DNA of 64,000 bases, from the NCBI GenBank assembly GCA_964057225.1, contig OZ059898.1, forward strand, positions 9,486,001 to 9,550,000. The letters are read 5' to 3'. Shown piece by piece: positions 1 to 29,679 of the stretch. Position numbers and translations under genes: made by a program. This DNA is from Auanema rhodensis. Taxonomy: Eukaryota > Animalia > Nematoda. Within the stretch, counting starts at the first letter, position 1, and each line of letters opens with the position of its first letter. A model generated the notes under the pieces. The model was not told the DNA's origin and did not search any database. It was given only the letters and a program-made list of their open reading frames with translations.

Positions 1-39
1 GAATTTCATCAACAGTTTCATACCATCTGTAAATCTCAA

Positions 40-5024: not shown

Positions 5025-5407
5025 TGTCACATCTGCAAGCACATGGTAAACATGTGCGCGCTATTCGAGCAGCGGGAGCCTGAACAAGCCCCGCCTACAA
5101 CATGGGACACACATGGCACTCTTGCTTCTGGTCTAACCCAGATAGGTTGTCTTATAGTCATGTGAGTCTCATCTCTATATCATCTATATATATATACTCT
5201 ATTTAATACTTTATTATATCTCTTTATATTCTTTCTTAATGTAATTCTTATATTGTATTTTCTTGTTATCTGATAATGAATCCTTTTCTCTTTAAGTATT
5301 TGTCTTAATAAGGAAATCGGGGCGTTCGGGTCTGCCTACCTAAGGAACAAGGTAGAAGTACATATATCTTCCGACCATGAAAAGACGGGAAGAAACAATA
5401 TGTAACG
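5025..5407 (+). repeat. Gypsy A 3' LTR (3' end uncertain, abuts a BEL fragment)
   Basis: Starts TGTCACATC right after the PPT. The same start recurs at 46042-46073 (-), and a diverged relative lies at ~44198-44516 (-). Confidence 0.75.
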
Positions 5408-6085
5408 AGCGTAAGTTGGTTCTTCTTTTTTCATGAACAGGTTCTTTTGGTGTTGCGTTATCCTTGAGTTTTTCTGGGATCTCGTTATCTGAGATTTCCA
5501 ATGAGTGCAGTAAGTTGACAGGTCTTTTTATTTCTCGACCTGTTTCCGAAATCAGCGTTGCTTCTCTGATGTTTCCTGATCTGTCGGGGTGAACTTGAGT
5601 TATTTTCCCCGTACTCCATTTGTGACGGGGAATGGGAAGCTCGTTGATTAGGACGATTTGACCGATGAATGGAATTAACTTTGTTCCCGCTTTCTTAACT
5701 GAAATGTTGTGATGGTGTGTAGAGCGGATTTCTTTCAGGTATAGATCTGTCCAGAGTTCCCAGAACGTGTTTGTGCGCTTCCTTGATGAGTGAATTGCTT
5801 GTTCTGTATCAGCTTGAGTTTGTAGCGCTGGGCTGTCAATGTAATCCTCATCCATTTCTTCTTCTGATTCGACAGAGATGTTCAAGTCGATGTCTTTATA
5901 TATGAAATCGCATGGTCGTATGATCTCATCTTTGTTGGTATCTGTACCGATGTATGTGAGTGGACGTGTGTTTATTGTAGCTTCACACTCTGCAAGGGTT
6001 ATTGTGAGCTCTTCAGTAGTTGGAGTACTGTGGAGTGTTTTGTACAGAGCATGCTACACAGACCTAATAAGTCTTTCGTAAAAAC
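5408..6085 (-). mobile_element. Fragment of the BEL/Pao integrase C-terminal region
   Basis: Near-identical inverted copy of ~36480-37157 (NISVESEEEMDE...KRRTNLR). Confidence 0.9.
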
Positions 6086-8320
6086 AGGCATTGGCTGACG
6101 ATCTCTTTCACATTTCCCATTATATTTGTCCAGTGTAATCTTCTTGATAATGCTGCATGTGTTTTTTGATCCCTTGATGTGCTCCAATTCTTGCATCTTC
6201 ATGAAAAAGTTTCACAAGTATTTAATTCAATGTCTTTTGTTTTGGAATCATAATCATTGGAGTAAGACATTGTTTGTTAGGTTTAGCATGTAAAACTCCG
6301 TCTATAACAATATATCTATCGATATTAATCTGTTTCGGTTGTTCCGTTAACATATCATTAATAGTTTCCTCAATCCATGGTGTTCCTTGTTGTTGTTGAA
6401 TTAGTTTGTCGGTATCCAGAGTTTCCACATTTGCTACATTTATGAGATAGTTAATGGTTTCTTGGGTATCGGTTAAATTTTTTGTTGGCGTTGTCTTGTG
6501 TAATTTCAGTTTAGGGCCATCGTTAGCTTCGTTGTCTATGTATCTGGATAGTGCATCACATACACTATTCATACGTCCTGGTCGGTACATAATCACAATA
6601 TCATATTCCTGGATCATCAACTGATATTTTGCTAGTCTTCCTATGTGATCTCTTCTACTCATTAGACTTGTTAGTGGTCGATGATCCGTTATTAGCTTAG
6701 TTGACGTGCCTTAAACATATGTGCGAAATTGTTGTAATAAGTAGACGAGTGCCAACGCTTCTAATTCGATGGGTGGGTATTTTCTTTCTGTAGGTGACAG
6801 TTTCCTACTTGCGAACGCAATAGGGTGTAATCCATTTCCTGTATCTTGTAGTAAGACTGCTCCAATCGCAATAGTACTAGCGTCACTTTCAATAACAAAA
6901 GGTGTTCCATTTGTTGGTGGTTTCAGAACTGGTGCTGTGCATAGAGCTTTCTTGAGAGTCTCGAATGCTTTCTCACGTTCTTCCGTCCATTCGAAATCTT
7001 GATCCTTGTGTGTGAGTTGATACAATGGTTCGGCTACTTTGGCATAGTCTCTGATGAATCGCCTAAAATAATTTGTCATTCCAAGGAATGAACAAATAGC
7101 GGTGACCGTTTTTGGAGTTGGAAATTTCTTAACCGCTGTAATTTTTGATGGATCAGGTTGTATTCCAGCACGACCAATTATAAATCCAAGAAATTTAACT
7201 TGTGTAGCTGCGAATCTGCATTTACTTAGTTTTACTTTCATTCCTAATCCTTGTAAAGCTTGTAACATTTCTTCTATATCCTCCTGATCTTGTTCAGCTG
7301 TGTTTGATATGATGAGTAGATCATCCAGGTAAACAAAAAGTCGACATTTCACTTGATTTTGCAAATAGCGAACAGCTGATTGAAATGTATGTGGAGCTCC
7401 ACAGATACCCATCGGCATTCTGCAATATTGATAAACTCCTGATGAGGTCACAAATGCAGTAAGGTGACGGTCTTCTTCACGTAAAGGAATTTGAAAAAAT
7501 CCCGATACGAGATCGATGTTTGTGAAGTATCGAGCTCCTGCAGTACTGTCGATTATTTCTGGTATATGAGAAATAGAATAAGTCTGTTTCTGTGTGACAC
7601 TATTGAGTGCACGGAAGTCCGTAAGAAAGCGAAATGAGTTGTCTTTCTTCTTAACTAGGACGGCTAGACTTGTAAAACTTGATGTTGATGTTTCTATTAC
7701 TCCTTGGTCCAGCATTTCTTTCACTTGACGTTCAAATTCGTCCTGTGCGTGTACCCAAAGAAACTCGATGTGATCGAGATTTGGGCAGATCCATATCGGT
7801 TCTCAAAGTGATTGAATGTTCTATAGGTCCTTTGAATAATCCAATGTTCCGATCTTCGTTGAGAAAAGCATTTTGAATCTTTTCAAAATAGTTTTGAGAT
7901 TTTTACATTGACCTTGAGATAGATCGGTTGATTCGGATTTTAAATTATCGAAAGGATTCTTCTCAAAAATAGGCAATTTATCTGACCAATCAGCTTCAGG
8001 TGGAATGTAGTCCGGTATGTGTGGGATTCCAATTTTTTCTGCTATTTTTTCTTTTCAATAATGGTGTTTCCTGTTAACTTAACCTCATAATTTGCAGTGT
8101 TGATGGAAAATATTGTGAGTGGTGAAGTCTTGATAGCAGTAGGTGTGAATTGAATAGGTCTATTTCCACATCGTATAAGAGCGTATTGTTTTGGTTGTAG
8201 TTCTTTTGCCAATTGTAGACGAATCATAGCTCCAGTTTTGGGTGGAATAATTGATTCTCTTCTCTATAATTGACACGGTGTCTGAACTAATGCGAAAGCT
8301 CTTTTGGTTAGCGGGGGTTA
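6086..8320 (-). pseudogene. Gypsy family B pol fragment (linker, RT, RNase H, integrase Zn finger), frameshifted
   Basis: ORFs 6711-7724 (YLDD, ESDAS) and 6222-6662 are clearly homologous to, but distinct from, family A pol. Confidence 0.9.
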
Positions 8321-12104: not shown

Positions 12105-12313
12105 TGTGCGAACGCACTCCATCTTTCCCATACTCTTTTTTGGACAACGATGCACTTTTATTCCCACTATTCTATTCACCTATGACTCATACGTGCCGCA
12201 CACACACATGCAAGTTTATCCGATTACTCCCCAGATGTTCCTTCCTTATTGTCTCTTAAACACATCTGTCCATCTTAACCTTTTATGTTTAATCTTGTTC
12301 TCTTATTGCCTAT
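12105..12313 (+). repeat. BEL 5' LTR, 3'-truncated
   Basis: Near-identical to 40078-40286, then joins directly to Polinton minor capsid sequence. Confidence 0.9.
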
Positions 12314-12646
12314 TATACGTGCTTCTTCCTCAGCTCCAAGAGGCTTTGTATTGTTGGCGATAAATGATTCTCTTCCAGCATTGATTCCGCGTATTATTTC
12401 ATCACCATTTGCATAGTTGCCTTTAGGCAAGTGCAGAATAAATTTTCTATTGGAAAAACGTAGTGTATAAGATAAATCTTTTTGAACATTTAATATAGAA
12501 CAAGGAAAAATGATGTCTGTCAGCCCAATGCAATATCTATTATTGCGTAGCCTTAGTGTTTCAGGTAATCTGGTAAGAAACACTGATGATGTATTACTTT
12601 TTTCAGAGTCAACTGATGATGGAAGAGTAATGTAAAAATCATCCAT
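12314..12646 (-). pseudogene. Polinton minor capsid (penton), 5' fragment
   Basis: Matches the first ~110 aa of 18755-19612 and is truncated at the LTR junction. Confidence 0.9.
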
Positions 12647-12725
12647 GACAAACCACCACTTGATACGTGTACATTATTGCAAATGAAATCATTTGCATTT
12701 TAGGTACATTTACGAGTGGTTGATT

Positions 12726-13373
12726 ATGGTTTTCAGCTTCAAACTACCCAGTCAGACAACTGTAATAGGTGCTACCCAATGCGGTAAAACAACCCTCATA
12801 AAGCACATATGTGAAAATACTGAAAAGTTTTTCAACGTCCCCATTGATAGAATATTCTGGTTCAGTCAATGTGGGTCATCGTCAGGTGTACCAATAAATG
12901 ATGAGCGTTTAATAATTATTCAAGGGCCGCCTGATCATGATTTGATAAAAGAACAAAAGGGAGTAAATACTATACTAGTGCTGGATGATTTGATGAACTT
13001 TTTTTCATCGAATAAAGCAGCAAAGGAATTACAAAACAACATTTTTACAGTATGGGCTCATCACTGGAATTTGGCAGTGTTTAATCTTGTGCAAGCGGCA
13101 TTTCAACTGGACAGGACCAGTCGAATCAATAGTACATATATAATACTGATGAAAAGTCATTCATATATATTACAAATACGTAATTGTCTGCAGCAATTAT
13201 TTGGGCCACATTTCAAAAATGCTCTAGAGGCGTATGATGATGCAATGTCTACTCCCTATAGTCATTTACTGATTGACAATCATCCTTTAACAAGTGAGAA
13301 GCAGCGTATACTATCTGATATAACAGCGGAGAACCCTATTGTTTATGTTGCCAGAAATGTGTTTAGTGTTTAA
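12726..13373 (+). CDS. Polinton A32/FtsK-like packaging ATPase (outer copy)
   Basis: Walker A GATQCGKT, Walker B ILVLDDL, HHWN..LVQ, RINSTY. Confidence 0.9.
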   Translation: MVFSFKLPSQTTVIGATQCGKTTLIKHICENTEKFFNVPIDRIFWFSQCGSSSGVPINDERLIIIQGPPDHDLIKEQKGVNTILVLDDLMNFFSSNKAAKELQNNIFTVWAHHWNLAVFNLVQAAFQLDRTSRINSTYIILMKSHSYILQIRNCLQQLFGPHFKNALEAYDDAMSTPYSHLLIDNHPLTSEKQRILSDITAENPIVYVARNVFSV

Positions 13374-13395
13374 AGTGCTTGTTCAATGAGTGGTC

Positions 13396-14470
13396 AGTAG
13401 AGAGCCGTGCAAAATTTACTAACCACGCCCCCAAACAGTTGCTAAAAACATACTTTTGGGGGCGTCAGCTGCTAAAAACATACTTTTGGGGAGCGTCAGC
13501 TGTCAAAAACATATTTTTGAGCGTCAGCTGTTAAAATCATATTTTGGCATCATGGTTCATGGATTTTCCTTTTTTAAATTTAAAAATCATGATTTAAAGC
13601 ATGATTTTTTTTTTTTTTTTTTCAAATCAAATTTTAAATTTGTTTATTCAAATGTATGTATATAGTTTTAATTATTTTTAAATATATTAAGTAAAAATAA
13701 AAATTATAAATTTTAAATATTTAAATTATATTTAAATTTTATATATATATAAATTATATTTAAACTTTAAATAATTAAATTATATTTAAATTTTATATAT
13801 ATAAATTATATTTAAACTTTAAATATTTAAATTATATTTAAATTTTATATATATAAATTATATTTAAACTTTAAATTTTATATATATAAATTATATTTAA
13901 ACTTTAAATTTTATATATATAAATTATATTTAAATTTTAAATATATAAATTTGTTTTTAAATTTTATTTCTTTCTTTATTTCTTTATTAAATTTATTAAT
14001 AATGTTTGTTTACTTGATTTGTTTATTTTTTATTGTATTGTGTTTGTACTATTTTATTTTAAAGAACAGTAAAATTTTTGCATGTATATCGTTTTGTTCA
14101 CCGTACTTGTTACGGGTAGTTCAATGGAACACATATCGAAGGTTAATTCGATAAGAACGATATGAAATACAAAATTTAATGGAACACATATCGAAGGTTA
14201 ATTCGATAAGAACGATATAAAATACCAAAATTTAATGGAACACATATCGAAAGTTAATTCGATAAGAACGACATTAAATTATTAATTTTTGAAATTACAA
14301 ATTGTTATTAATTATATTTATTCTAACAAGTAAAAGTTTCAAATTAAAAGAAAAGACTAGTTTTAAACTTTATTTTACTAATATAACAATACAATAACTA
14401 AATAGAGCACACATTGAAGGTAAATACAATAAGATTAACAAACAGTTGCGCTGACCTCAATGAAACGCAT
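13396..14470 (+). repeat. Polinton left TIR with 30-bp, AT-rich and 56-bp internal tandem repeats
   Basis: Inverted homology to 28176-29038 and ~33200-34200. Confidence 0.9.
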
Positions 14471-15093
14471 ATCGATGGTTAATAAACAGTAATAACTGCA
14501 CTGTGGGGGTTTAAATATAGTATAATCATTTTAACATTTCAAAAGTTTTAGTTTCGTAATATAATCATTTTTAAATATTCAAGAATGAAATATTTTTACA
14601 TATAAAACGTTGGCAGTCACATGTTTTGTGCTACAATATGGGTGTAAAACTATACTATGAATAATATATGAGCTATTAAGCAAAGTTTAAAAAGCCTAAA
14701 TGTTTTACAGAGATGGCTGTTGTTTATGGCACAAACGGTAAACAATAATGTTTAAAGAGATGTAAAAACTAATTAATATGCAGATTGTTTACAGGTTCAG
14801 AGTGCGCCAACTGTTGGCAACTGTCGATGAGATGAGTATATCTGCATAAATATGCTGTAAAATCTAATTAATAAAAGAATTTCATCAGCAAACTTGATTG
14901 TAACACAATGGGTTGTACTTTACAAAAATCTTTGTATAAAAGGTTGGCAATTTTGCTACATTTACATTTCAGCTCTGCCGACTATCCGAGGATCCGACGT
15001 TTCACCATCTCCTGCCACTCTTTGCCAATCGCCATAGACTGCTCCTCTCTGCAAGTTTGCCTTATATTTTAGAAAGTTGGATCTTTAGCGGAA

Positions 15094-15679
15094 ATGAAGC
15101 GTGCTGTACTTGCTGATGTGACAAATGTTGTGCGCAAATCGCCTGAACCTGAAGTACCACGACCACCCACACCAGCACCAAATTTCACAAGTTTTGGTAT
15201 GAACCTTAACTTGTCTTTTTTAAATCTTTAATTTAGATTCACCAATAAAGCAGATTGAGATTCTGAGAGAGAGCACTCCACCAAGGAGTGTATTAATGAG
15301 ACCGATTTGTCTCTGCAAAACTTGTAGGGAATCATTGCAGGTTATAGACGAGTATCACTGTTTCAGCCTCTGTATAAAGTGTAGAGGAAGGAATGATGCG
15401 TTGGGTCTTTTGAAGGAGTTTCGTCACTATAAGCCCGAAAACTTTTCTATTAATGTAAGCTTGCATATTTATTTATTTTCAATTTTATAATTTTTTTAGA
15501 TGCGCTTTTATAACACCATGACGTGCAAGCAATTGTTGAACAATATGGGCTATATTGTTATATATGCAGATGAGGCTACTGTAAAGACTTTTGGTTATAA
15601 GCAGAATGTATTCTACTTTAAACTAATTCCTGAAGCACTCAACCTGAACATGTTTATCCGCTTTGATCCTTCATTTTGA
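15094..15679 (+). CDS. Spliced Polinton accessory protein, ~166 aa (exons 15094-15196, 15237-15454, 15500-15679); D-box-like N-terminus, CxCxxC...CxxCxxC
   Basis: 40- and 45-bp GT-AG introns give one continuous frame: MKRAVLADVTN...DSPIK...STPPR...CLCKTC...CFSLCIKC...FDPSF*. Confidence 0.65.
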
Positions 15680-15972
15680 CTACAACAAGCACAAATAGTA
15701 CAATTGGCGTTTTATTCTTGTTTTGTTATGTGGCATTTTTATATTCTCAGCCGTAACATTTTTTTTTCCAGCTCTTGCGAATATCCATCAATGGCTCATC
15801 AATTGAGGACGAATGATCAACCAACTGGTAAGAATTTGAAAATTTGAATAGTCTACATTTTTTTTTCCAGGTTGAATTGTTGTTTGTATTTTGCTGGTTT
15901 TTTATTGTTACATTATGCGATATATCAAATAAATCATTTATTATAATTACAATTGTTTATAACATTGAAAAA

Positions 15973-17037
15973 TTATACATTTAAATTTTCTGCATCTATC
16001 CATTCATTAAAGTTGTCGGGATATCCACTCCATTTTACAAATACTTGACGTTTACCGCTTCGAGTACGCTCTTTTAAAACTTTTTCTATATAGTACTTGT
16101 TGCTTTTATTAGTAGCCAAGACAAGTTCAGGTTCGTAGAATATTCCCTTTATACGTTCACCATTATAATCTACAAGTTTATACACGGTTGGGTTTCCGGT
16201 TACAACCTCATCAATTGTGAACAGCTCCATTGTATATCCAGACTCGTAGCTTTTTTCAAAAGTACGCCTATTTTTGCTTATGCGAACAGTATCACCAATT
16301 TTAAAGCGGCTTTTAACAGCTGGTGCATATTCTTCAATGAATATATTTGCTTTAACATCAATGGGCCGCATTTTTATAGAGCGGTTATAAGATTTGTTTA
16401 TTCCTTCAACCAAATCATCTAGGATATCAATCCAACGATGATTATTCTTGTAATAGAGATATTTCATCATGCGTGTTTTTAAAGTTCTATTTGCTCGCTC
16501 CACCATTGCAGCCTTTTGTGGTGAACTTGTAGATCCGTGCAGTATGGCAAACTTTTTGAATAGTTTTTCACAATGACTATTATAAAACTCTGTGCCATTA
16601 TCAGTAATCAACTGAATTGGTATAAAATTCTTGAATAAATTTTCAAATGCACTAGCAACCTCTATACCACCTTTAGTTTTCAAAGGCCTAACATATAACA
16701 TGCGTGAAACATCAATCATGGTCAACATGTAAGCATAGCCGTCGTTTAATTTTTTATATTTTTGCATATCAACCAAATCTGCTTGCACTGTTAGAAATCG
16801 ACCACATCCTCTAGTCTTTCTAGTCTGCATACGCATTCTGGTTGGTTTATGCCGTGTAAAAGTTTCAGAATCTTGCAAAAAATCATCAACTTGTACCTTT
16901 GAAATGCCATGTTTTCGTGCTTGCGATAATAAATTCTTGGCTGATGTATATGAAGCTGGATGTTTTATATCGTAATAAATGCTCGCCAAAATATCATTTC
17001 CATAATCTAATGTAGAACCTTTTACGACCTTGGCCAT
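15973..17037 (-). CDS. Polinton retroviral-like integrase with C-terminal chromodomain
   Basis: QADLVD / TDNGTEF / VERANRT DDE triad, and YYIEKVL...VKWSGY...EWI chromodomain. ATG inferred at MAKVV. Confidence 0.92.
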   Translation of the reverse strand: MAKVVKGSTLDYGNDILASIYYDIKHPASYTSAKNLLSQARKHGISKVQVDDFLQDSETFTRHKPTRMRMQTRKTRGCGRFLTVQADLVDMQKYKKLNDGYAYMLTMIDVSRMLYVRPLKTKGGIEVASAFENLFKNFIPIQLITDNGTEFYNSHCEKLFKKFAILHGSTSSPQKAAMVERANRTLKTRMMKYLYYKNNHRWIDILDDLVEGINKSYNRSIKMRPIDVKANIFIEEYAPAVKSRFKIGDTVRISKNRRTFEKSYESGYTMELFTIDEVVTGNPTVYKLVDYNGERIKGIFYEPELVLATNKSNKYYIEKVLKERTRSGKRQVFVKWSGYPDNFNEWIDAENLNV

Positions 17038-17710
17038 TCTGTGTTTCTCCCGCCTGAGGTGTGTAATATGATTCGGCGGCAGTATCAAAAGTCTTTGACC
17101 TTTTACTTTTGAGTGTACGAACCGGTGATGGTGAATATCGAATAACAGCTTTACGATGACGAGGCGTTCTAGGTAATATAGTAGAGTCCAAGTCTGTAAC
17201 AGCCGGTTCAGCTCTAGTTACAACGTCAACTGAATCATTGTCAGCCGACTCTCTTCTAGTTTGTTTCTTGTTAGAACTAGATACGCCTTTACTGGCTAAA
17301 AACTTTGACAAGACTGAAAATCCATTGGGCTCCGTTTTTGTTTTATCCAGTACAAAATCTAAAATTTTTGTAATATTCGTGTTTGGTACAGCCTCATTAT
17401 TAATCACAAGTTGGTTATTCTTGTTTGTGCGCACCTCTGGAAATTTCTCCCACAAATTGTTATACTTTCTTGGCAACTTGTATTCTGGCAATAGAGGTGG
17501 ATCAACATTTTCCACTTGTACTGATATGGGCGCATCTATACTTTCTCTATAGTTTTTGAGACGAGCAATCAAGTCTTCGTATAGTTCAGCCTTTTTATAG
17601 TCGGGTATAGCTCTATTTTCTCGTAAAAGCTTGAGCTCTGCATCAAACTTGTCTATATTAATTGTTTCCTCGTCGACAGGAATTAGTCGATATTTATGGT
17701 TGAGCTTCAT
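16994..17710 (-). CDS. Polinton uncharacterised protein (238 aa) with basic S/T-P-rich C-terminus
   Basis: Intact in both copies, overlaps neighbouring ORFs in a tightly packed cluster, ends QNGQGRKRF. Confidence 0.8.
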   Translation of the reverse strand: MKLNHKYRLIPVDEETINIDKFDAELKLLRENRAIPDYKKAELYEDLIARLKNYRESIDAPISVQVENVDPPLLPEYKLPRKYNNLWEKFPEVRTNKNNQLVINNEAVPNTNITKILDFVLDKTKTEPNGFSVLSKFLASKGVSSSNKKQTRRESADNDSVDVVTRAEPAVTDLDSTILPRTPRHRKAVIRYSPSPVRTLKSKRSKTFDTAAESYYTPQAGETQNGQGRKRFYIRLWK

Positions 17711-18015
17711 GATTTAAAACCAAAATAGGCAATACCACATGTAACTATTGTTTTCAATTGTTTGTGTGAAAGCGTTGCCAATAATGATTTAGCCTTTTCC
17801 GGTGTGCGTATCAAAGCTATTTGACGTAATAATGAAGATATGGGCAAGAGGGTTTTATATTCCTTGTTAGTTAAAAGAAAATTATTATTTTTCACAATAT
17901 TAAATACAATTTCAACAATAATTTCAATTTGTGCAAAAGAAAATGAGGAAACAGAACAAGGAGTTTTGGCGCAAGAAGACAAAAAGTTGAAATTTGACAA
18001 AATACGACCACTCAT
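17707..18015 (-). CDS. Polinton small uncharacterised protein (102 aa)
   Basis: Intact in both copies. ATGA stop/start overlap with the downstream ORF. EIVFNI motif. Confidence 0.75.
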   Translation of the reverse strand: MSGRILSNFNFLSSCAKTPCSVSSFSFAQIEIIVEIVFNIVKNNNFLLTNKEYKTLLPISSLLRQIALIRTPEKAKSLLATLSHKQLKTIVTCGIAYFGFKS

Positions 18016-18027
18016 TGAACAAGCACT

Positions 18028-18675
18028 TTAAACACTAAACACATTTCTGGCAACATAAACAATAGGGTTCTCCGCTGTTATATCAGATAGTATACGCTGC
18101 TTCTCACTTGTTAAAGGATGATTGTCAATCAGTAAATGACTATAGGGAGTAGACATTGCATCATCATACGCCTCTAGAGCATTTTTGAAACGTGGCCCAA
18201 ATAATTGCTGCAGACAATTACGTATTTGTAATATATCTGAATGACTTTTCATCAGTATTATGTATGTACTATTGATTCGACTGGTCCTGTCCAGTTGAAA
18301 TGCCGCTTGCACAAGATTAAACACTGCCAAATTCCAGTGATGAGCCCATACTGTAAAAATGTTGTTTTGTAATTCCTTTGCTGCTTTATTCGATGAAAAA
18401 AAGTTCATCAAATCATCCAGCACTAGTATAGTATTTACTCCCTTTTGTTCATTTATCAAATCAGGATCAGGAGGCCCTTGAATAATTATTAAACGCTCAT
18501 CATTTATTGGTACACCTGACGATGACCCACATTGACTAAACCAGAATATTCTATCAATGGGGACGTTGAAAAACTTTTCAGTATTTTCACATATGTGCTT
18601 TATGAGGGTTGTTTTACCGCATTGGGTAGCACCTATTACAGTTGTCTGACTGGGTAGTTTGAAGCTGAAAACCAT
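18028..18675 (-). CDS. Polinton packaging ATPase
   Basis: Walker A GATQCGKT and Walker B LVLDDL. Confidence 0.92.
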   Translation of the reverse strand: MVFSFKLPSQTTVIGATQCGKTTLIKHICENTEKFFNVPIDRIFWFSQCGSSSGVPINDERLIIIQGPPDPDLINEQKGVNTILVLDDLMNFFSSNKAAKELQNNIFTVWAHHWNLAVFNLVQAAFQLDRTSRINSTYIILMKSHSDILQIRNCLQQLFGPRFKNALEAYDDAMSTPYSHLLIDNHPLTSEKQRILSDITAENPIVYVARNVFSV

Positions 18676-18754
18676 AATCAACCACTCGTAAATGTACCTA
18701 AAGTGCAAATGATTTCATTTGCAATAGTGTACACGTATCAAGTGGTGGTTTGTC

Positions 18755-19612
18755 ATGGATGATTTTTACATTACTCTTCCATCATCAGTTGACTCTGAAA
18801 AAAGTAATACATCATCAGTGTTTCTTACCAGATTACCTGAAACACTAAGGCTACGCAATAATAGGTATTGTATTGGGCTGACAGACATCATTTTTCCTTG
18901 TTCTGTATTAAATGTTCGAAAAGATTTATCTTATACACTACGTTTTTCCAATAGAAAATTTATTCTACACTTGCCTAAAGGCAACTATGCAAATGGTGAT
19001 GAAATAATACGCGGAATCAATGCTGGAAGAGAATCATTTATCGCCAACAATACAAAGCCTCTTGGAGCTGAGGAAGAAGCACGTATAAAAAGTTTAATAG
19101 ATAAAGATGAAGATGTAAAAAAATGGTATAATAATCGCCAGGCTGAGGCTAAGCTAGTGGAGGAAATGCTCGCAGACGCCACATTTCAGTTTAACAAAAC
19201 ATTGCAGCGCATAGAGTTTGTAACAAGCAAGCGACTATTAATGAATGCAACGCTTGATGATGATTTTGCATATTTTCTTGGTTTTGAAAATAAAAACATC
19301 AACGATACAATAATAGCCAGGGGTCCCATTGATTTTTCAAATAACATTAATACAATGTATATATATTGTGATATTGTAGAATATTCCATTCTTGGTAATG
19401 TGAAAGCTAATTTACTTGCATGTTTGCCTGTACCACCTCCTACTGAATTTGGTAAAATGATTGCCAAAACATTTAATCCTATTCGTTATGTACCAATCAC
19501 TAGACAAACACTCGATACCATATGTATTGAAATTTTAGATGAATTTGGTCGTCCTATGCAATTTAATTATGGTTCTACAGTTGTTACATTGCATGTTAAA
19601 AATATGAAATAA
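18755..19612 (+). CDS. Polinton minor capsid protein (penton, single jelly-roll)
   Basis: Typical motifs DFYITLPS, NTSSVF, YIYCDIVEYSILG, PIRYVP, DEFGRP and VVTLH. Confidence 0.88.
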   Translation: MDDFYITLPSSVDSEKSNTSSVFLTRLPETLRLRNNRYCIGLTDIIFPCSVLNVRKDLSYTLRFSNRKFILHLPKGNYANGDEIIRGINAGRESFIANNTKPLGAEEEARIKSLIDKDEDVKKWYNNRQAEAKLVEEMLADATFQFNKTLQRIEFVTSKRLLMNATLDDDFAYFLGFENKNINDTIIARGPIDFSNNINTMYIYCDIVEYSILGNVKANLLACLPVPPPTEFGKMIAKTFNPIRYVPITRQTLDTICIEILDEFGRPMQFNYGSTVVTLHVKNMK

Positions 19613-19617
19613 ACGTT

Positions 19618-20082
19618 TTATTCAACAGTTATACAATACCACATTTTTATTTTCGAAGGTTTAAAAGATAGTTTAGGGCAGTTTTGTTTGTCGCTCGGCT
19701 CGTGTTGTGAATGTTCTCCGTCACTATTGCTGCGGCATCTTTTTGATTGGGTTGAATGTACAAACTCCTCAGCTTTTTCAAAGGGTTTGCTGGTATCATT
19801 TCCATCACCATCTTCACTATTCGTTCCATTATTATTATGAATACGCCGAATATGACGCTCACAATTGAATCTTGTTCCAAAAGTTTCACTACAATGAGGG
19901 CACAAACGTCTACGAACACCATCCAAATGTCCATATTTTTGAATAAAGTCAGCATTGCTGATATAATTGTTACATATGGGTTGAATCCCTGCATGTCTTT
20001 TCAAAACGTGATCACTAAAATGCTTGGTTGAAGAAAATATTTCCTTGCATGTACCACAATATTTGTTACATAAAAGTTCCAT
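19618..20082 (-). CDS. Polinton protein with two C2H2 zinc fingers
   Basis: YCGTCKEIFSSTKHFSDHVLKRH and LCPHCSETFGTRFNCERHIRRIH. Confidence 0.8.
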   Translation of the reverse strand: MELLCNKYCGTCKEIFSSTKHFSDHVLKRHAGIQPICNNYISNADFIQKYGHLDGVRRRLCPHCSETFGTRFNCERHIRRIHNNNGTNSEDGDGNDTSKPFEKAEEFVHSTQSKRCRSNSDGEHSQHEPSDKQNCPKLSFKPSKIKMWYCITVE

Positions 20083-20335
20083 TAGAGGAAAATGAAAAAC
20101 GACCACACGCAATCAACCCACTTTTATATAATGAGCAATAATATGACTAGTGTTGTACAAAAGCCCAATCCCAATGCTATACCTTTAATAAATGGCACTG
20201 AAATACATTTCAACATTCTCCTGTATAAAGGCGCTGGTTTAGATTGCTCCAACGTGTATTTGACACATAATTCACAGTGACAAGGAATATTCATAACTGA
20301 CCACGTAATGTAGCAGGTTATTAATGACAAATTTC

Positions 20336-20791
20336 TTATATAGTAGCCAATTTATAGTCGAATACTTTATGCATAAACGCTTTAATAAAGACATCATCAT
20401 TTTTCAATAGTTTAAAAAATGAACAAATGCTTTCAAATGAATTACCAGCCGACAACATTAGTATTACAAATACCACGTAGCCACCACAAGTGTATTCAAT
20501 TATACGTTGTGGTTTGCAAGTATTAATTTTTACCTTTTTATATTTGGCCAGATAATTTTGAATGTACTTGTTCATTTTATATCCCAAGCTACAGAAAAAA
20601 TAGGCTTGCTTGTTACGGACAAAGATGACCTGCCAATGTGTGCCTGGCTTATCATGTGTGTCAGTATTTACGACAAGTGCAAAGTTTTTACGACGCGTTT
20701 TGGGTAGAGTATCAGCGCTATATACACCGAGGAATAGTTTCCGAGTGCTGGGTACAGATTGCAATAGTGATACTATTTCAGACGAATACAT
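20336..20791 (-). CDS. Adenain/Ulp1-like cysteine maturation protease
   Basis: FLGVYSAD, NTDTHDKPGTHW, Q...TCGGY. Confidence 0.88.
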   Translation of the reverse strand: MYSSEIVSLLQSVPSTRKLFLGVYSADTLPKTRRKNFALVVNTDTHDKPGTHWQVIFVRNKQAYFFCSLGYKMNKYIQNYLAKYKKVKINTCKPQRIIEYTCGGYVVFVILMLSAGNSFESICSFFKLLKNDDVFIKAFMHKVFDYKLATI

Positions 20792-20842
20792 TTTAGTAGA
20801 ATGATCTAGTGTAACTTTTGTATTGCGCGCGTGCGGTTCGAT

Positions 20843-21295
20843 ATGCCGCACCTCCTTTTGGATGTCAACTCTATTCAATGGACAACACTTTTAAATCAAC
20901 AAATGGGTGGCGCCCCATTTAGCGGAATGATGTTTCAACATGGAATGCAGAGGGGTCATGGTTTGGGTGGTATTTTGGCAACTTTGGCATCATTTCTACC
21001 ACGCATCATTCAATCACCTATAGCCCAAAATCTCATCAATGCCGGAAGAAACGCCTTATCCAGTGCTGTAAGCAATAGTCCAGTTGTAAATTCACCTCTT
21101 GGCGGACAGTTGCTGAAAACTGGTAATGAAATTGTCGATGGGGTGCTGAAAGGCGATAATATCAAGGAAACTCTTAAAACAGCCGGCCGACAAGCTATAC
21201 GAGATCTTACCGGCTTGGGCAAACGGCGACGACGCAAAACCACAAAACCTCATAAGCGGTTGTGCATCACTCGTGAGCGGTCGTTTCACATTTAA
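20843..21295 (+). CDS. Putative virion core / membrane-active protein (protease substrate)
   Basis: QMGG, MQRGHGLGGILATLASFLP amphipathic segment and basic tail GLGKRRRRK. Its stop abuts the MCP ATG. Confidence 0.7.
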   Translation: MPHLLLDVNSIQWTTLLNQQMGGAPFSGMMFQHGMQRGHGLGGILATLASFLPRIIQSPIAQNLINAGRNALSSAVSNSPVVNSPLGGQLLKTGNEIVDGVLKGDNIKETLKTAGRQAIRDLTGLGKRRRRKTTKPHKRLCITRERSFHI

Positions 21296-22630
21296 ATGGC
21301 TAAATTGATAGATTCAAAATCAGCACAAGCCCTTTTACCTAATATCAACTATGGTGAAATACCTGCGTCGGCATTAGGTGTTGAATCCACTCGTACTGTA
21401 CAAGTCCCTTTGAAAAATACTTTTCTTCCTCAAGGACCATGGGAATTTGTTATAGCTCAAAATTCCAAATCATTCCTCAATCTGAGAAGATGTTGGTTGA
21501 ATGTAAAATTTAAAATTGTAACCACAAACGGTGATCCAGTACCAGACAACCTTGTTTTTGCACCATGTCAACAATTTGCTGCCAGTTTAATACATTCGTA
21601 TCATTTGAAAATTGGCGATGTTAGCGTGTATGACTCTACCGTGAATCATGCCTATAAAACATATATCGAGAATATTTTAATGTATAGCAACGATGTTAAA
21701 GAGAGCAAACTTGCCATATCAGGCTATTATGCTGATAGATATATAGATAATGCATCCAGTGCTGGATTTAGAACGCGTCAAACGCTTGTAAAAAATGGCA
21801 TATTGTGTGAGATGGCTGCTCCCGTCAGTATCGACCTATTTAATCAAGAGCGACTGTTTGTAAACTATTCAAAAATGGAGCTAACTGCATATCCAAACCG
21901 TGATAACTTTTTAATTGACACTCTAGGCTGGAATAATGAAAACAAGGATACTACATTAAAGGAGGAGTTACCAAATTTGAAAGTAGATATCAGCGATGTA
22001 CATTTGCTCATTCAAGAGTTTGATCTAAACGCTGGATTAGCTATGGCTATAGAAGATAAACTCGCAAAGGATCGAATACACTACCCCATGACATCAGTGA
22101 AAATGCGCTCTTATTTCATAGAAGGAGGCCGCTTGGATTCACCTAATAATATATTATTCACGTCTCATACACCAAAACGTGTTGTAGTAGGTCTTGTCGG
22201 CGCACACGCTTATAATGGTACTTTTAAACATTCGCCATTCAACTTTAAACCGTTTGATTTGAAAAATATATACTTGACGCTCAACAATAGGGTAATACCT
22301 ACCCGTCCTTATAATTTAGAATGGCGATCTTCCTATGCCACAGCATATATTGACATGCTCGAAGGTTTGGGACTTGGTCGTACAGATTCATCCAATGGTA
22401 TTACACCAGCAATGTATAAAGCTGGTTTCACATTTTTTGTATTTGATATTTCTCCTACTGTGCATTCGTCAGAGTTATTTGATGTTATACGACAAGGTAA
22501 TGTAGCCTTGAAATTGGAATTTGGTCAACAAACGCCGCAAGAGGGCTTATATGCAATTGTTTATGCAGAGTATGACTCTATTCTTTCAATTGACAACAAT
22601 CGTGCTCCATATATTGATACCAGTTCGTAA
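21296..22630 (+). CDS. Polinton major capsid protein (double jelly-roll)
   Basis: 444 aa with PKRVVVGLV, YNGTFKHSPFNF, FFVFDISP and YAEYD motifs typical of Polinton MCP. Confidence 0.92.
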   Translation: MAKLIDSKSAQALLPNINYGEIPASALGVESTRTVQVPLKNTFLPQGPWEFVIAQNSKSFLNLRRCWLNVKFKIVTTNGDPVPDNLVFAPCQQFAASLIHSYHLKIGDVSVYDSTVNHAYKTYIENILMYSNDVKESKLAISGYYADRYIDNASSAGFRTRQTLVKNGILCEMAAPVSIDLFNQERLFVNYSKMELTAYPNRDNFLIDTLGWNNENKDTTLKEELPNLKVDISDVHLLIQEFDLNAGLAMAIEDKLAKDRIHYPMTSVKMRSYFIEGGRLDSPNNILFTSHTPKRVVVGLVGAHAYNGTFKHSPFNFKPFDLKNIYLTLNNRVIPTRPYNLEWRSSYATAYIDMLEGLGLGRTDSSNGITPAMYKAGFTFFVFDISPTVHSSELFDVIRQGNVALKLEFGQQTPQEGLYAIVYAEYDSILSIDNNRAPYIDTSS

Positions 22631-22774
22631 TGTATGTAATAAATTCTTTAAAAGATTTAAGAATAAAATTTATTAATACCACTATTTTTAAAAATAAATA
22701 CATGTACAATGATAAAATTTTATAAATACAAATATATACAAGATAAAAATTTATAAATTCAAATATATTAAAAC

Positions 22775-25700
22775 TTATTCACAATAACCGTAGGGTAAAG
22801 TACTATAATCTTGTAGATAACAAAGTTTATCCATTACGACTTTAGTACTTTTTGTCATATCCATTGTGGATATGGCACCGAGTTGCCTCTTTAACAATGT
22901 CGTATTGGTTTTTAAAACCAATTTCTCTCCATCCACAACGAGTCCGCGAACCAGTCGCTCCATACTTTCAAAGTTTACCACTGATGCTGCCGTGTGGTCC
23001 AACGTCTGAAAATTATAAAATTATTTGAAAAGTCAAAGCTCGTACTTACCACTCCCTTTGCCTTTGTTACATATTTCACATCACCAGCTGCATTTACAAG
23101 TTTATAACTATAAACTTTTGCTGCTGGTGACACAAACTTGGTCATTGACCAACCATCGGGTATTTCAGAGGTTAGTTTACCTAACCATTCACCCTTCATA
23201 TCCTCAATTGGATCTGGCTCATCCAGGCACCTTTGATAAATTAGAGAATCCGTGTCTAAATAATGTAAGTTTAAATTGAATACAAAGTATAAAATTACCT
23301 GTATACACCAAATTCTTTCCAATTTTCTCCATTGCCTTATACAATAGTAGCCTTGCATGAGCGGTTGTATAGGCCGCAATAGCTACATTTGTAAAAGGCG
23401 GTGGCGCCAAATGTGAATCCTCTGGTACTGTTGTGCAGTACGCAACATTATCCACAATTTTGAACCCAGTGAGTTCCCTTGCAGGATCAGTAATGATCCT
23501 ACCAATTTCTGGGTCCTCAACACCAATAATCTTGGTTTGGGCTTTATCAGGTCTTTGACCCATTTTACCCCAGACACTATAAGCAAATTTGTAATGTATT
23601 GTTTTTAAAAAGTTTACAAACCTACTTAGCTGCAGTTTGGCAATGCTACGCATGGCAGCATTCTTTTCAATTTTATTGCTCTCCAGAGCAACACCAGTGT
23701 TCTCCTCGTGCTCTTGGAGATATATTACCTGTAAAATTCTATTTAATGTGATACTTTTATTAAAACATACCTTTTCTTCCTCTGTCATGTTTGGCTTTGG
23801 CCAGCCCGACGCCTCTTGTTTAATTTTTATGTACTTTTGTACAAATTCTTTAAACAGGCCGCCTTGTTGCCATTCTTCCCAGTGCCACACCTCATGCACA
23901 TTAAGCACTTTATAGCCACGTTGTATGGCACACTCGAGCTCAACATGTGTCACAGTTAGATGCAGCTTTCTAGCATTTACATCATTTTGGTGCTCACATG
24001 CTACATTTTTACTCTTGACTGCACAAGTGCGGCAGTTTGTAAAAATTAATTTACCGCCAATACGTGTGCCTAATACAGGGTACAGCAAATTTGTGGGTGC
24101 AAGCACGTCACATTTTACTAGCCCCTTGTATGGGCAACATGTCTCAAAGCTTTTGAAACTCTCAGTAATAACTTTGGGATTACCTACAGGGTAATAGGCA
24201 TCAAAAGCGGTGACATATGGATATAGTGAACAAAAGTCCACATACTCGAGCGAGTATCTATCCGAAGCTTGTGCCAAAAGCTTATATGTCTGGGTGCGGC
24301 CACCGATAAAGGCATCTCTAGGTGCCAAGCGTGTAACAACATTTGTTTCACGCATAAATTTCGCCATTTCTTCATTGGCCGAAATTTGAGCATTAATTTC
24401 GTGCTCCCACACTGTGGTAACACTAATGCCTTGGCTTTGAATTGCTTCAAGCCTTTTCATGGTTTTATCATAAACCTAAATTTTAAAAGTTAAAATGATT
24501 AAAAAAGTCACAATTACCTCTTCCATTGTTTCACCATTTCTGCCTGGTGCTATAGCGCTCTTGTTGGTGCACTGGGGGCAACCATGGTAAATACAACCAT
24601 TAATCTACAAAAATTTGAATTTTTTACATTTATCACAAATTACTCACCTCATAGCCATGATTGGCAACGGGGTCATAAGCATCGAGTAGATAGCGATGGT
24701 CATCTACTCTCACTGCAAATTCACCACCATTAAGCTTATGCATTAATGGGCGGCCCAATCCTTGTTCTAGCCATTTTATATACTTTATGGCTATTATACT
24801 CTGCTTTTGACCGGCATAATAACCAGTCTCGGGCAGAATACCCACTTGGTTCTCTTTAATGTGGTTCATTTTCAACTGTAATATAATAGTTTTGAAAATG
24901 CTTGTATTTTAAAAAACTTGCCTGGAATAAAGAGAAACTGGCAAATGTCATACATTGTATGACAGGGTTCCAGCCAGTGGTGGCGGTTGCCAACTTCATG
25001 TAAACTTTCATACAGTTGGTTAAAATACGGACATCTGTCCTACAATATTCCAAAAGCTCTTCATCAAAATCAAACGCTCTTTGATTACGCTCTTCATACC
25101 AAATATCGAATGAAGCTAGGTCTTCTGCTTTCATTCTAGCAGTACAATAGTACTGTTTTGGTGGTAAAGATGGTAACACTTTGCCATAATTTATTGGGTG
25201 ATTATAGAGGTAAGGAAACTGTCCTTTACTCATATCAGGTACACCAAATGCCTTGGGTAACGCTGATAGGGGTAAAGGCACTAATAAATAACTATCTTTA
25301 AAATATAAATGATTAAATTTTTGACCTCTTAAAGGCTTGACAACCATGCTTATAATCTTGGTCCCATTTAAAATTGGATCAGGATATATTCCACGGTTTA
25401 TCAGCCTAGACACCAAGAAATGTATGTCAAAGCGTGAACCATTATGCGCAATCAAAATTGCATTATCATTCTCAACAGAGTTGAGTAACCAATCAAGGAA
25501 ACGATCTGTTACAGACCATTCACTATCACCTTGTTGGTACCCAAAATGGCCCTCCTTGGTTGTGCATTTTTCGCATGAATTGGCGTCTATACAACTTTCA
25601 CAAAATTTGTTATACACAACCATATTGGGCCATTGTTCATCTGCATATTCATGAACATTTGTACCGCTTTTTAACACAACCGTTTCAAAGTCATAGAAAA

Positions 25701-27978
25701 TAATCTTAAACAAGTAAGCATTACACTTGTAAAGATGTAAAATACAAACCTTGTATTTTTCTTGCCTCTTTTTTAACTGATCCTTCTTCTTGTCGTTAGG
25801 TGGTACCCAACAACAAGAATGATCTTCAGGCTTTGTTTGCCCACACTTTTTGCAAAATTTCTCATTGCAATTGTGCGGTCTATCAGCACGTACTCTGTGA
25901 TAATGATCACAGTTTTCACATGTCTGAATTTAGTCTTGTTAAATTTTATATATATTTTTTAAATTACCTTAAACATTCGACATGTTTTTCTGATATGCCT
26001 GTCAAAGCATTGACGAGTTTTGAACAAAACTCTACAACTATCACATCTTATGCTACTCTCAACCACATTTTCCATCGAATTACATTTTAAGGTGTGGCAT
26101 TTCTTACACTTGGCTTTACATCTATGCAACACTGTTTTGTAAGATAATTTACAGTGTTGGCATATAATACCATCAAAAATCTGTGATCTACTACAAGTAG
26201 TAATACAGTCATAATGATTATTTCGGTAGCCTAGTGTTACCACTTTGCTAGCCGTTTCATTAAAGATACGCTGAATAGCGTACATACGCTGTCCAGGTGG
26301 CCTAGCGTATACTACAAACTTATAGTCTGTATTACAACTTGCAATAATATTTAAATGGTTCAAATTATAATTTGGTAAATGTACAGAAATACCACACCTA
26401 TTTAATAAATTGATATGATGTGGTTGATTTGGCAACAAGATGTAGTTGCGACGAAGATTTTGTATCCTCCGCTTTTCAACAACATCTTCTGCTGCCTCTT
26501 CATCGGCTTTCCACATTCCCACGACTGCTGCTCTAGCCAGGCAATGTGTATCAGTGTTCTCAATTGTGCCAGGTATTTTGAGTTCGGCATCAAAATAGAA
26601 ACCAACTCTACCTTCACCAGGCATCAGGCTTGGCTGCACCGGTCTTTCATCAAACACATACATTTCAATGTTCATTGCCTGGCTAATTACAGCCTCTCGC
26701 TTTGATTGCTGTACCTTGCTGATGGCATTCATGATGGCAACGCCATCCAAATGCTCCCTTCTACGGAAATCCATAAATATGGATCCCTTTTCAAAGGATG
26801 GGTGCTCTATTGATAAACAAAATAGTGCTTTTTGTTTATCTGGCACACCACTTTCAGCAAGGCACCGATCAAGAAACTCATTAAATAGCCGCGGCATGAC
26901 AACATGCATTGGCTCATTAATGGCTTCCAAATGTGGGAACGTGAGCGATCTAACGACCACGTTGGTGAACCGACCAGTTCGTTTTATGCGTCGGTGTGAC
27001 CACTATAATACATATTTTTTATAATGGTTATACGCTTTTAATTTAAATATAAATAATTTTTGTTTATAACTTTTAATAAATTTACTTTTCTTTAAATTAT
27101 TTTTATTAATGTTTAAAAATAAATGGCATTTGATTTTTAAATATAAAGTTTTTTTTTTTTCAACTTTGAAAAAACTTTTATAAACATTTGTTAATGTTAA
27201 AAAATAAATGAAAAGGTCAAGATTGTGTTTTATTATTTTACTAGTTCAAAATGTTTGAAATATTTATAATTTGTAAGAATTCAAAATTGGTTGAAAGAAA
27301 GATAGATAGTGAGATGAAATGTAAAGATTTTAAAATGAATGCTGTTCAAAAGAATGAATATGTAAATTTCAAAATACTTGCAATTTGTTTGATAAAAGAT
27401 ATAGATTGAGATGAAATGTAAAGATGAGAGAGAGAGAATTTTATGAATGCAATTGAAAAAGAGAAATAAATTTCAAAATGTTTTCAAAATATGCAACTGG
27501 AGCAAGAGAAAATTTCATGTTTCAAAAGATATATTATGAAATGATATGTAAATAAAAGATCGCACCTCTATTTTACAGACATTGTTGAAAACCGCTCCAT
27601 ATCCGACTTGCCCTCCACTGGTTGATGGGGTAGCGGGATCCCATTCTCTTAAAAAGAAAAAACTAATTGTTATAATTTTTAATATCGCTTACTCATCACT
27701 GTCATCCAAGGTTATTACTTCAATAACCCTTGATGATGAGGGCCCACTGTTAAAAGTGGGTGATGTGGGCTCACAGAGCTCGATCCCACCAGCCTCGGTA
27801 AACTTTATACGTTTACTAAAAAACAAAATATATATAAAGATTCAAAATATTGTTAAATTACCTGAGCTGATTAATCTCTTCATAATCAAATCCTAGCTCT
27901 TCACATAAACGTTTATAACTGAAAAAAGAAAAAGTTTACAAACAAATAAACAAAAAGACACAACCTATTAGCAGCCAT
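22775..27978 (-). CDS. Protein-primed family B DNA polymerase, 14 exons, ~1369 aa, with an inserted Vsr-like nuclease domain
   Basis: Exo FYDFET / HNGSRFD / YCRTDV; pol GGRT, DFCSLYP, KLQLSSVWGK, YTDTDS; YEINGCIYHGCPQC. Introns: 27919-27964, 27816-27861, 27648-27692, 27003-27565, 25924-25967, 25705-25749, 24876-24921 (GC-AG), 24605-24647, 24476-24517, 23729-23770, 23577-23621, 23256-23298, 23006-23049. All phases are compatible. Confidence 0.88.
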
Positions 27979-28175
27979 TGTACCTTGATATAATGAATAT
28001 ATCAGTCTACACATTGCTGTTGGCATTGTAATTTGTTATGTAACATGGATTTGGGTACAGCTGTCAAAACTAGCAGTTGCGATAAACTTTAAAATAAATA
28101 AGCTTATTGAATACATCTGTTTTTATTGTCCCCATCGGATTAATTTTTGTTATTAGTTCTTATTAAATTAACTTC

Positions 28176-29038
28176 ATGCGTTTCATTGAGGTCAGCGCAA
28201 CTGTTTGTTAATCTTATTGTATTTACCTTCAATGTGTGCTCTATTTAGTTATTGTATTGTTATATTAGTAAAATAAAGTTTAAAACTAATCTTTTATTAT
28301 AATTTGAAACCTTTACTTGTTAGAATAAATATAATTAATAACAATTTGTAATTTCAAAAATTAATAATTTAATGTCATTCTTATCGAATTAACTTTCGAT
28401 ATGTGTTTCATTAAATTTTGGTATTTTATATCGTTCTTATCGAATTAACCTTCGATATGTGTTCCATTAAATTTTGGTATTTCATATCGTTCTTATCGAA
28501 TTAACTTTCGATATGTGTTCCATTGAATTACCCATAACAAGTACGGTGAACAAAATTATCTACATGCAAAAATTTTATTGATCTTTAAAAATACAAATAA
28601 AATAGTACAAACACAATACAATAAAAAATAAACAAAATAAGTAAACAAGCATTATTAATAAATTTAATAAATAAATAAAATTTAAAAAACAAATTCATAT
28701 ATTTAAAATTTAAATATAATTTAAATATTTAAAATTAAGATTTTTATTTTTACTTAATATATTTAAAAATAATTAAAAATATATACATACATTTGAAAAA
28801 GCATATTTAAATTTGATTTAAAAAAAAAAATCATGCTTTAAATCATGATTTTTAAATTTAAAAAAGGAGAATCCATGAACCATGATCCCAAAATATGATT
28901 TTAACAGCTGACGCTCAAAAATATGTTTTTGACAGCTGACGCCCCCAAAAGTATGTTTTTAGCAGCTGACGCCCCCAAAAGTATGTTTTTGACAGCTGTT
29001 TGGGGGCGTGGTTAGTAAATTTTGCACGGCTCTCTACT
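28176..29038 (-). repeat. Polinton right TIR
   Basis: Inverted match to the left TIR with a shorter AT-rich tract. Confidence 0.9.
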
Positions 29039-29073
29039 GTGGTCGTATTTTGTCAAATTTCAACTTTTTGTCT

Positions 29074-29667
29074 TGCGGTAAAACAACCCTCATAAAGCAC
29101 ATATGTGAAAATACTGAAAAGTTTTTCAACGTCCCCATTGATAGAATATTCTGGTTTAGTCAATGTGGGTCATCGTCAGGTGTACCAATAAATGATGAGC
29201 GTTTAATAATTATTCAAGGGCCTCCTGATCCTGATTTGATAAATGAACAAAAGGGAGTAAATACTATACTAGTGCTGGATGATTTGATGAACTTTTTTTC
29301 ATCGAATAAAGCAGCAAAGGAATTACTCAACAACATTTTTACAGTATGGGCTCATCACTGGAATTTGGCAGTGTTTAATCTTGTGCAAGCGGCATTTCAA
29401 CTGGACAGGACCAGTCGAATCAATAGTACATATATAATACTGATGAAAAGTCATTCAGATATATTACAAATACGTAATTGTCTGCAGCAATTATTTGGGC
29501 CACGTTTCAAAAATGCTCTAGAGGCGTATGATGATGCAATGTCTACTCCCTATAGTCATTTACTGATTGACAATCATCCTTTAACAAGTGAGAAGCAGCG
29601 TATACTATCTGATATAACAGCGGAGAACCCTATTGTTTATGTTGCCAGAAATGTGTTTAGTGTTTAA
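29074..29667 (+). pseudogene. 5'-truncated packaging ATPase (starts inside Walker A)
   Basis: CGKTT onward only, fused to the first codons of the 102-aa ORF. Confidence 0.88.
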
Positions 29668-29679
29668 AGTGCTTGTTCA

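Follow-up and report, generated by a model that had tools for sequence, protein, structure and literature searches.

A spliced cargo gene with a destruction-box-like N-terminal motif in a Maverick/Polinton element of Auanema rhodensis

We analyzed a 64,000-nt stretch of the Auanema rhodensis genome (assembly GCA_964057225.1, contig OZ059898.1, positions 9,486,001 to 9,550,000; hereafter the window, whose own coordinates are used throughout). Within it, a Maverick/Polinton element carries a spliced gene for a protein of 166 aa. The initial annotation had assigned this gene to a Polinton, and its surroundings agree, as it sits between a terminal repeat and an integrase in DNA that holds a PF03175 polymerase, an rve integrase and inverted repeats. 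The features of the element are as follows.

13394–14470, no strand assigned: terminal repeat with internal tandem repeats; inverted copies at 33201–34202 and 28176–28950 (outer end of the latter cut short)
15973–17713, minus strand: integrase, convergent with the cargo gene, rve core and chromodomain (PF00665, E = 2.3e-5, below the Pfam cut-off; PF00385, E = 3.8e-8)
18028–27002, no strand assigned: Maverick core, from Pfam matches and ORFs
18028–18714, minus strand: ATPase-like ORF, with weak P-loop matches only
18728–19612, plus strand: ORF without a family match
19618–20112, minus strand: C2H2 ORF of 164 aa, with zinc-finger-like matches below the cut-off, between the preceding ORF and the protease
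20336–20890, minus strand: adenain-like protease (PF00770, E = 0.0013, below the cut-off)
20810–22630, plus strand: ORFs, with no family for 21296–22630
23219–27002, minus strand: protein-primed DNA polymerase B in three ORFs (PF03175, E = 1.6e-22 for 24856–25929 and 6.9e-17 for 23219–24475)
30478–31725: second copy of the integrase (PF00665, E = 1.4e-8)
32024–32577, minus strand: second copy of the cargo gene, in the inverted partial element; broken

Terminal inverted repeats are present, and their terminal letters agree between 13394 and 34202; a repeat search revealed long inverted arms (13394–18621 against 29074–34202). No target-site duplication was found, as the flanks of 13394 and 34202 differ, and these outer ends probably come from two separate copies. 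We read the DNA from about 12.3 to 34.2 kb as composite Maverick DNA, in which a reasonably complete element (13394 to about 28950) is followed by an inverted partial copy (28993–34202) that holds an ATPase, an integrase, the cargo gene and a terminus. In addition, an ATPase fragment (12313–13395) abuts the left terminus. The integrase–ATPase parts of the arms show 100% identity over about 2.8 kb, and the gene and terminal repeat show 97–98% identity with indels, with the change-over near 15858–15866; this pattern could reflect recent inverted duplication, gene conversion or an assembly artefact.

In the accessible part of Jeong et al. (PMC10748475), the genes of nematode Polintons comprise core genes, an uncharacterised ORF of at least 300 aa, and a fusogen of 730 aa or more. 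The 166-aa cargo gene is different from this uncharacterised ORF, and the element at 13394–28950 contains no fusogen-size ORF (at least 730 aa). The C2H2 ORF at 19618–20112 is missing from the core-gene list in the same part of that source. When the integrase was compared with viral contigs, no relative was found; among metagenome contigs there were two relatives (L001 and L002), both 38% identical, and neither holds a relative of the cargo gene or an ORF led by a destruction box (D-box).

Further repeats lie on both sides of the Maverick DNA. A BEL/Pao retroelement (34181–39778) encodes Peptidase_A17, RT, integrase and DUF5641, followed by a phlebovirus-G2-like fusion glycoprotein/envelope ORF (PF07245, E = 4.9e-84). 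It begins at the Maverick terminus at 34202 without a 5' part of its own, and thus one of the two elements was probably inserted into the other. Upstream, two LTR-retroelement pol regions lie on opposite strands (1–4109 and 5340–7802), and the ORF at 1–2034, upstream of the aspartyl protease, shows weak, below-cut-off matches to viral fusion glycoproteins (PF24664, herpesvirus gB). Pieces of Tc1/mariner (Tc3-like) transposase occur at 43010–43741 and 47086–48157, with HTH domains on the plus strand and the DDE_3 part on the minus strand. A 232-bp satellite extends from 48643 to 63993, up to the window end (66 copies, 96% matches, about 26% GC), with a strong skew of G over C and of A over T.

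The structure of the cargo gene was derived from public sequencing runs, 16 of which, from five studies, contain part of the stretch. We compared four RNA-like runs (X12, X13, X14 and X16) with four DNA runs (X2, X4, X8 and X9). All junction evidence comes from X12–X14, which belong to one study and one organism code and whose RNA label is a guess; the DNA runs carry four organism codes, all other than that of X12–X14. The resulting gene model is listed below.

14979–15093, plus strand: 5' UTR, extending at least this far upstream (X14 contig from 14979, X12 and X13 contigs from 15029)
15094–15196, plus strand: exon 1, coding, with the start codon, the D-box-like motif and two S/T-P sites
15100–15126, plus strand: RAVLADVTN, residues 3–11 of the spliced translation, D-box-like motif
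15197–15236, plus strand: intron 1, 40 nt, GT..AG; skipped in X13 and X14, kept in the DNA contigs of X2, X4, X8 and X9
15237–15454, plus strand: exon 2, long form, coding, with SPIK (15239–15250), TPPR (15275–15286) and the Cys/His cluster
15308–15382, plus strand: Cys/His cluster (C59, C61, C64, H75, C76, C80, C83), predicted zinc site
15324–15366, plus strand: alternative intron, 43 nt, GT..AG with a TTTCAG acceptor, within long-form exon 2; skipped in X12 and X13
15455–15499, plus strand: intron 2, 45 nt, GT..AG; spliced out in X12 and X13, retained in the DNA contigs
15500–15679, plus strand: exon 3, coding part, with the stop at 15677–15679
15680–15933, plus strand: 3' UTR, with an intron at 15828–15870 and AATAAA at 15928–15933

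A gene of three exons and about 166 aa had been proposed from the sequence, and this was borne out: exons 15094–15196, 15237–15454 and 15500–15679, separated by GT..AG introns, join into a 501-nt plus-strand ORF that encodes 166 aa and a stop. Because the transcript holds no ATG in 14979–15093 and an in-frame stop lies at 15070–15072, the ATG at 15094 is the first start. Both predicted junctions, 15196/15237 and 15454/15500, were found, the introns being skipped in RNA-like contigs and intact in the four DNA runs. Specifically, junction 15454/15500 is present in contigs of X12 and X13, and a 40-nt skip at intron 1 occurs in X13 and X14. The latter was aligned as 15189/15230, which we infer to be 15196/15237 shifted to the left, since the seven letters on either side are alike. 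Moreover, an X12 contig stops exactly at 15196, and its 15 loose letters are the start of exon 2. Neither joint occurs in X2, X4, X8 or X9, whose contigs cross both introns unbroken. As the joints are seen in RNA-like contigs and are absent from DNA contigs of four other organism codes, we attribute them to splicing; a processed DNA copy is a possible alternative source of the X12–X14 joints.

All four skipped segments are GT..AG on the plus strand, which gives the direction of transcription. Intron acceptors are TTTCAG or TTTTAG, intron lengths are 40–45 nt, and GC content is 35–48% in exons versus 16–23% in introns. Taken with the BEL/Pao retroelement and the Tc3-like pieces, these short introns and their acceptors by themselves point to a eukaryote, most likely a nematode. 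X16, a declared RNA-seq run from a separate study, covers only 15633–15781, which places the 3' end of the gene in an RNA library and is uninformative on splicing. The transcript reaches at least 15916, as an X13 contig joins 15609–15826 to 15870–15916, and the poly(A) site may lie near the AATAAA at 15928–15933.

The two introns of the initial annotation stand, and a further, alternative 43-nt intron lies inside its exon 2. The segment 15324–15366 is spliced out in two of the three covering runs (X12 and X13), whereas the X14 contig continues through the donor to 15352, which indicates that both splice forms exist. Its removal shifts the frame, and the product consists of residues 1–63 followed by three codons and a stop, giving 66 aa without the larger part of the Cys cluster. 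We conclude that the gene is real, that it is expressed with alternative splicing, and that it has no annotation among the collections searched.

We then compared the copies of the gene. Ten coding sites vary across the four DNA runs, six of them synonymous and four replacement (I41M, N103K, F110S and I150S). Relative to 104.3 synonymous and 393.7 replacement sites, this corresponds to a replacement/synonymous ratio of about 0.18 (binomial P = 0.008; the sites are pooled and are not independent events), and 8 of the 10 are third codon positions (P = 0.003, also from pooled sites). Downstream of the alternative intron, there are three synonymous and three replacement sites, which alone is not significant. 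No coding indel occurs in the 498 nt among close copies, although intron 2 and the 3' UTR do contain indels, and the 166-codon frame is free of stops in the principal contigs of all four DNA runs. Owing to the synonymous and third-position bias and the lack of coding indels in near-identical copies, the long frame of 166 aa looks constrained, and we consider a function for it very likely. X8 also contains a more diverged copy, which shows 14 differences over the 97 nt that it covers (15530–15626); the seven differences listed for it fall in five codons, two with silent changes and three with conservative replacements.

The second copy in the window (32024–32577) is broken: a 7-bp gap deletes the intron-1 donor, and a 23-bp gap in exon 2 shifts the frame. 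Its exon 1, including the motif, and its exon 3 are intact. Some DNA-run contigs match the window over just a part of the gene, with loose ends at 14994, 15081, 15145, 15530 and 15626, and one X9 contig skips or replaces 15180–15288. This indicates that mosaic and diverged copies exist. In addition, a 691-nt X8 contig begins to match at 15081, 13 nt upstream of the start codon, and carries unrelated sequence ahead of that point, which suggests that the gene has recombined into a different upstream context.

The last 109 residues of the protein are hydrophobic and Cys-rich (7 Cys, 10 Phe and 7 Tyr). A CxCxxC...HCxxxCxxC cluster had been pointed out there, and the translation contains it as Cys 59, 61, 64, 76, 80 and 83 with His 75. 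Searches for families, folds and relatives were carried out exon by exon on unspliced translations. Pfam returned no family for any of the three exons at E up to 10. In the PDB sequence search, exon 1 gave nothing, and the best hits of exon 2 (E = 1.2) and exon 3 (E = 0.047) were both judged to be chance; in the ESM Atlas, exon 3 gave nothing, and exon 2 matched only unnamed small Cys-rich clusters, with recognition below threshold. The predicted fold of exon 2 alone was not informative (mean pLDDT 56) and the model was poor throughout, with the tail part (its residues 1–22) mostly at pLDDT < 50. Protein searches at near length found no relative of exon 1 or exon 2, and five candidates for exon 2 among longer proteins were obtained, none of which scored. 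Likewise, none of the 14 pattern matches of exon 3 in viral contigs or of the 406 pattern matches of exon 2 in metagenome contigs was confirmed. Overall, no homologue of the 166-aa protein was found in the protein collections searched by single exons.

The N-terminal part is of a different composition. Residues 1–57, hereafter the tail, contain 11 Pro and 9 Ser/Thr, have no Cys, Trp, Tyr, Gly or His, and have two Phe as their sole aromatics. As stated in the initial annotation, the spliced translation begins MK-RAVLADVTN and includes the SPIK and TPPR sites. According to the accessible part of PMC12401543, the key residues of a D-box are R1, L4 and N9, with Val, Leu or Ile at position 7 and mostly Pro or Ala at position 3, the residues at each position being about equally frequent in substrates; Pro or Ala at position 3 is a preference and not a requirement. 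RAVLADVTN has R1, L4, N9 and an aliphatic position 7 (Val 9 of the protein), whereas its position 3 is Val, outside the Pro/Ala preference. It shares six of nine positions with the Hsl1-derived peptide described in that part of the source, and the likeness to the Hsl1-derived and consensus peptides there comprises R1, L4, D6, aliphatic 7, T8 and N9.

The strict pattern R..L.[DE][IVL].N has two matches among the 127,996 six-frame residues of the window, both of them copies of the cargo gene, and it arose in 0.14% of 20,000 shuffles of the protein, a figure whose significance is overstated as the pattern was picked after the fact from many windows. The loose pattern R..L....N has 57 matches in the six-frame window and arose in 6.4% of shuffles. 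S/T-P sites lie at residues 16 (S), 26 (T), 36 (SPIK) and 48 (TPPR), all four within the tail, and two of them have the full CDK form S/T-P-x-K/R. Four such sites including two full ones arose in 0.8% of tail shuffles (also an after-the-fact choice), and four S/T-P sites alone in 6%. Lys 2, 15 and 39 lie near the motif. The 166-aa protein has no KEN box, and its one ABBA-like match (residues 126–131), in the hydrophobic part, is probably due to chance. Both window copies and all four DNA runs carry the motif unchanged, and the latter show no difference across 15094–15176; as the copies are about 98% identical overall, this carries little weight. A start at residue 3 is unusually close to the N-terminus for a D-box.

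A place for such a gene is already known. In the accessible part of Widen et al. (bioRxiv 10.1101/2022.07.12.499685), Mavericks are reported to move genes between nematode species, and nematode Mavericks have a region of 2–5 kb, from the left TIR to the integrase, with intron-bearing cargo genes. This cargo consists of wasp proteases and krma kinases, each led by an N-terminal ubiquitin-like module, and these modules recombine between elements. The present gene shares with wasp and krma cargo the slot between terminal repeat and integrase, the introns, a separate N-terminal module pointing at the ubiquitin system and followed by a C-terminal domain, and near-identical copies under several organism codes, some of which share only part of the gene. 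It differs in its length of 166 aa, in that no protease, kinase or ubiquitin-like domain was detected, and in that its N-terminal module is a short degron-like motif rather than a folded domain. Furthermore, unlike the cargo of Widen et al., its region is not GC-rich (31.6% versus 36.1% in the integrase), and no host-derived homologue was found in the protein collections searched. We regard the gene as an additional Maverick cargo gene.

As in known D-box degrons, the motif lies in a tail rich in proline, with Lys residues and CDK-consensus sites close by; the Val at position 3, the start at residue 3 and the location on a mobile element set this candidate degron apart. As in Emi1 and Acm1, a D-box lies upstream of a Cys-rich, likely zinc-binding stretch; however, there is no detectable sequence relation to either, the Cys spacing differs, and no F-box or C-terminal tail motif is present. 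We know of no viral APC/C regulator that is a D-box-bearing Maverick protein. The likeness to such regulators (HCMV pUL21a, PMC3390409; poxvirus and others, PMC13524340) is that a virus-like DNA element would interfere with or read the host APC/C, but in the accessible parts of these sources they bind or destroy APC/C subunits, and the cargo protein has no sequence relation to them. A full-text literature search for Polinton or Maverick together with APC/C or destruction box found no transposon-borne D-box protein, and the nematode Maverick literature from 2023 on shows no such cargo gene by title or abstract start.

The best explanation, in our view, is that this spliced and transcribed gene in the cargo slot encodes a predicted accessory protein of 166 aa whose level would be set by the host cell cycle, a reading that we adopt tentatively and rate somewhat below an even chance. 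The tail would be disordered, and APC/C co-activators (in nematodes, FZY-1/FZR-1) would bind its D-box. As a result, the protein would be degraded from anaphase until the end of G1 as well as in cells that do not cycle, and phosphorylation of the neighbouring sites by CDK may modulate its degradation. The Cys-rich domain, with its likely zinc site, would then be present only in cycling cells, for example in the germline and early embryo, and the 43-nt alternative intron would either lower the output of the full protein or give a 66-aa tail-only product. Whether the tail contains a working degron is a claim that rests on short motifs, and we regard it as quite possible, short of probable. Against it are the Val at position 3, the placement of the motif at residue 3 and the lack of a KEN box, together with the finding that two of the three RNA-like runs assemble the form with the 43-nt intron spliced out, which yields the 66-aa product only. 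The initial annotation had also spoken of a 'sensor' or 'decoy' and of germline timing; the choice between the first two, and the link to the third, can at most be inferred.

At present, the resemblance to a degron may also be accidental, a possibility that we take seriously while leaning against it. Short linear motifs readily arise by chance. The motifs would then be chance matches in a proline-rich tail, and the accessory protein would act via its Cys-rich domain, for example as a zinc-ribbon binder of nucleic acid or protein, with no tie to the APC/C or CDK. The 57 occurrences of the loose pattern in the six-frame window and its recovery in 6.4% of shuffles fit this explanation, as do the 6% of shuffles with four S/T-P sites for a tail that contains 11 Pro and 9 Ser/Thr, the departure of Val at position 3 from the usual Pro or Ala, and the nature of the known nematode Maverick cargo, namely proteases and kinases with no cell-cycle link in the accessible part of Widen et al. 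(10.1101/2022.07.12.499685). It accounts less well for the strict nine-residue form, which is rare (0.14% of shuffles) and has no other match in the window, and for two full CDK sites within 50 residues in a tail without Cys or aromatics save two Phe, which is the usual setting of working degrons.

Emi1 and Acm1 act as APC/C pseudosubstrates, and the cargo protein might do the same, with its D-box docking on the co-activator and its zinc domain blocking ubiquitin transfer, so that the host cell would be held in an S/G2-like state favourable to element replication. We consider such a decoy quite unlikely. The Cys-rich cluster about 50 residues after the D-box and the existence of a 66-aa isoform, a tail-only peptide, are in line with it; in the accessible parts of two sources, a high-affinity D-box makes Acm1 an inhibitor (PMC12401543), and diverse viruses convergently inhibit the APC/C (PMC13524340). 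However, exon-by-exon searches of Pfam, the PDB and the ESM Atlas found no sequence or profile similarity to a known inhibitor or zinc-binding region, Lys residues adjoin the motif as in substrates, and an element integrated in one or a few copies could titrate the APC/C only if strongly expressed. Finally, the locus could be transcribed without giving a working protein, as a decaying cargo remnant in which the 43-nt intron cuts the main transcript short and nonsense-mediated decay eliminates it. The frame-breaking splice form assembled in two of three runs, the second window copy broken by two deletions and the absence of a homologue from the protein collections searched are compatible with decay. 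Nevertheless, we judge it very unlikely: in DNA with a GC content of 31%, the 166-codon frame is uninterrupted over two junctions that were each confirmed independently, the principal contigs of all four DNA runs keep it with no coding indel or stop, and the synonymous and third-position bias includes exon 3 downstream of the alternative intron.

Beyond the preferred reading of a cargo protein whose level follows the host cell cycle, the element may be a Maverick with an APC/C gate of its own. Here, the tail would limit the element protein to cycling germline or embryonic cells or would act as a pseudosubstrate, and the 43-nt intron would switch between the full zinc-domain protein and the 66-aa peptide. 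We regard this as unlikely; if true, a virus-like transposon of eukaryotes would for the first time be seen to carry a cell-cycle degron module.

If the tail is not a degron, the locus still provides an expressed cargo gene that is unannotated, has alternative splice forms and lacks relatives in the collections searched. Should the tail hold a working degron, it would reveal the way in which a Maverick reads the host cell cycle, and it would offer a means to test at what time and in what cells Maverick proteins are allowed to build up.
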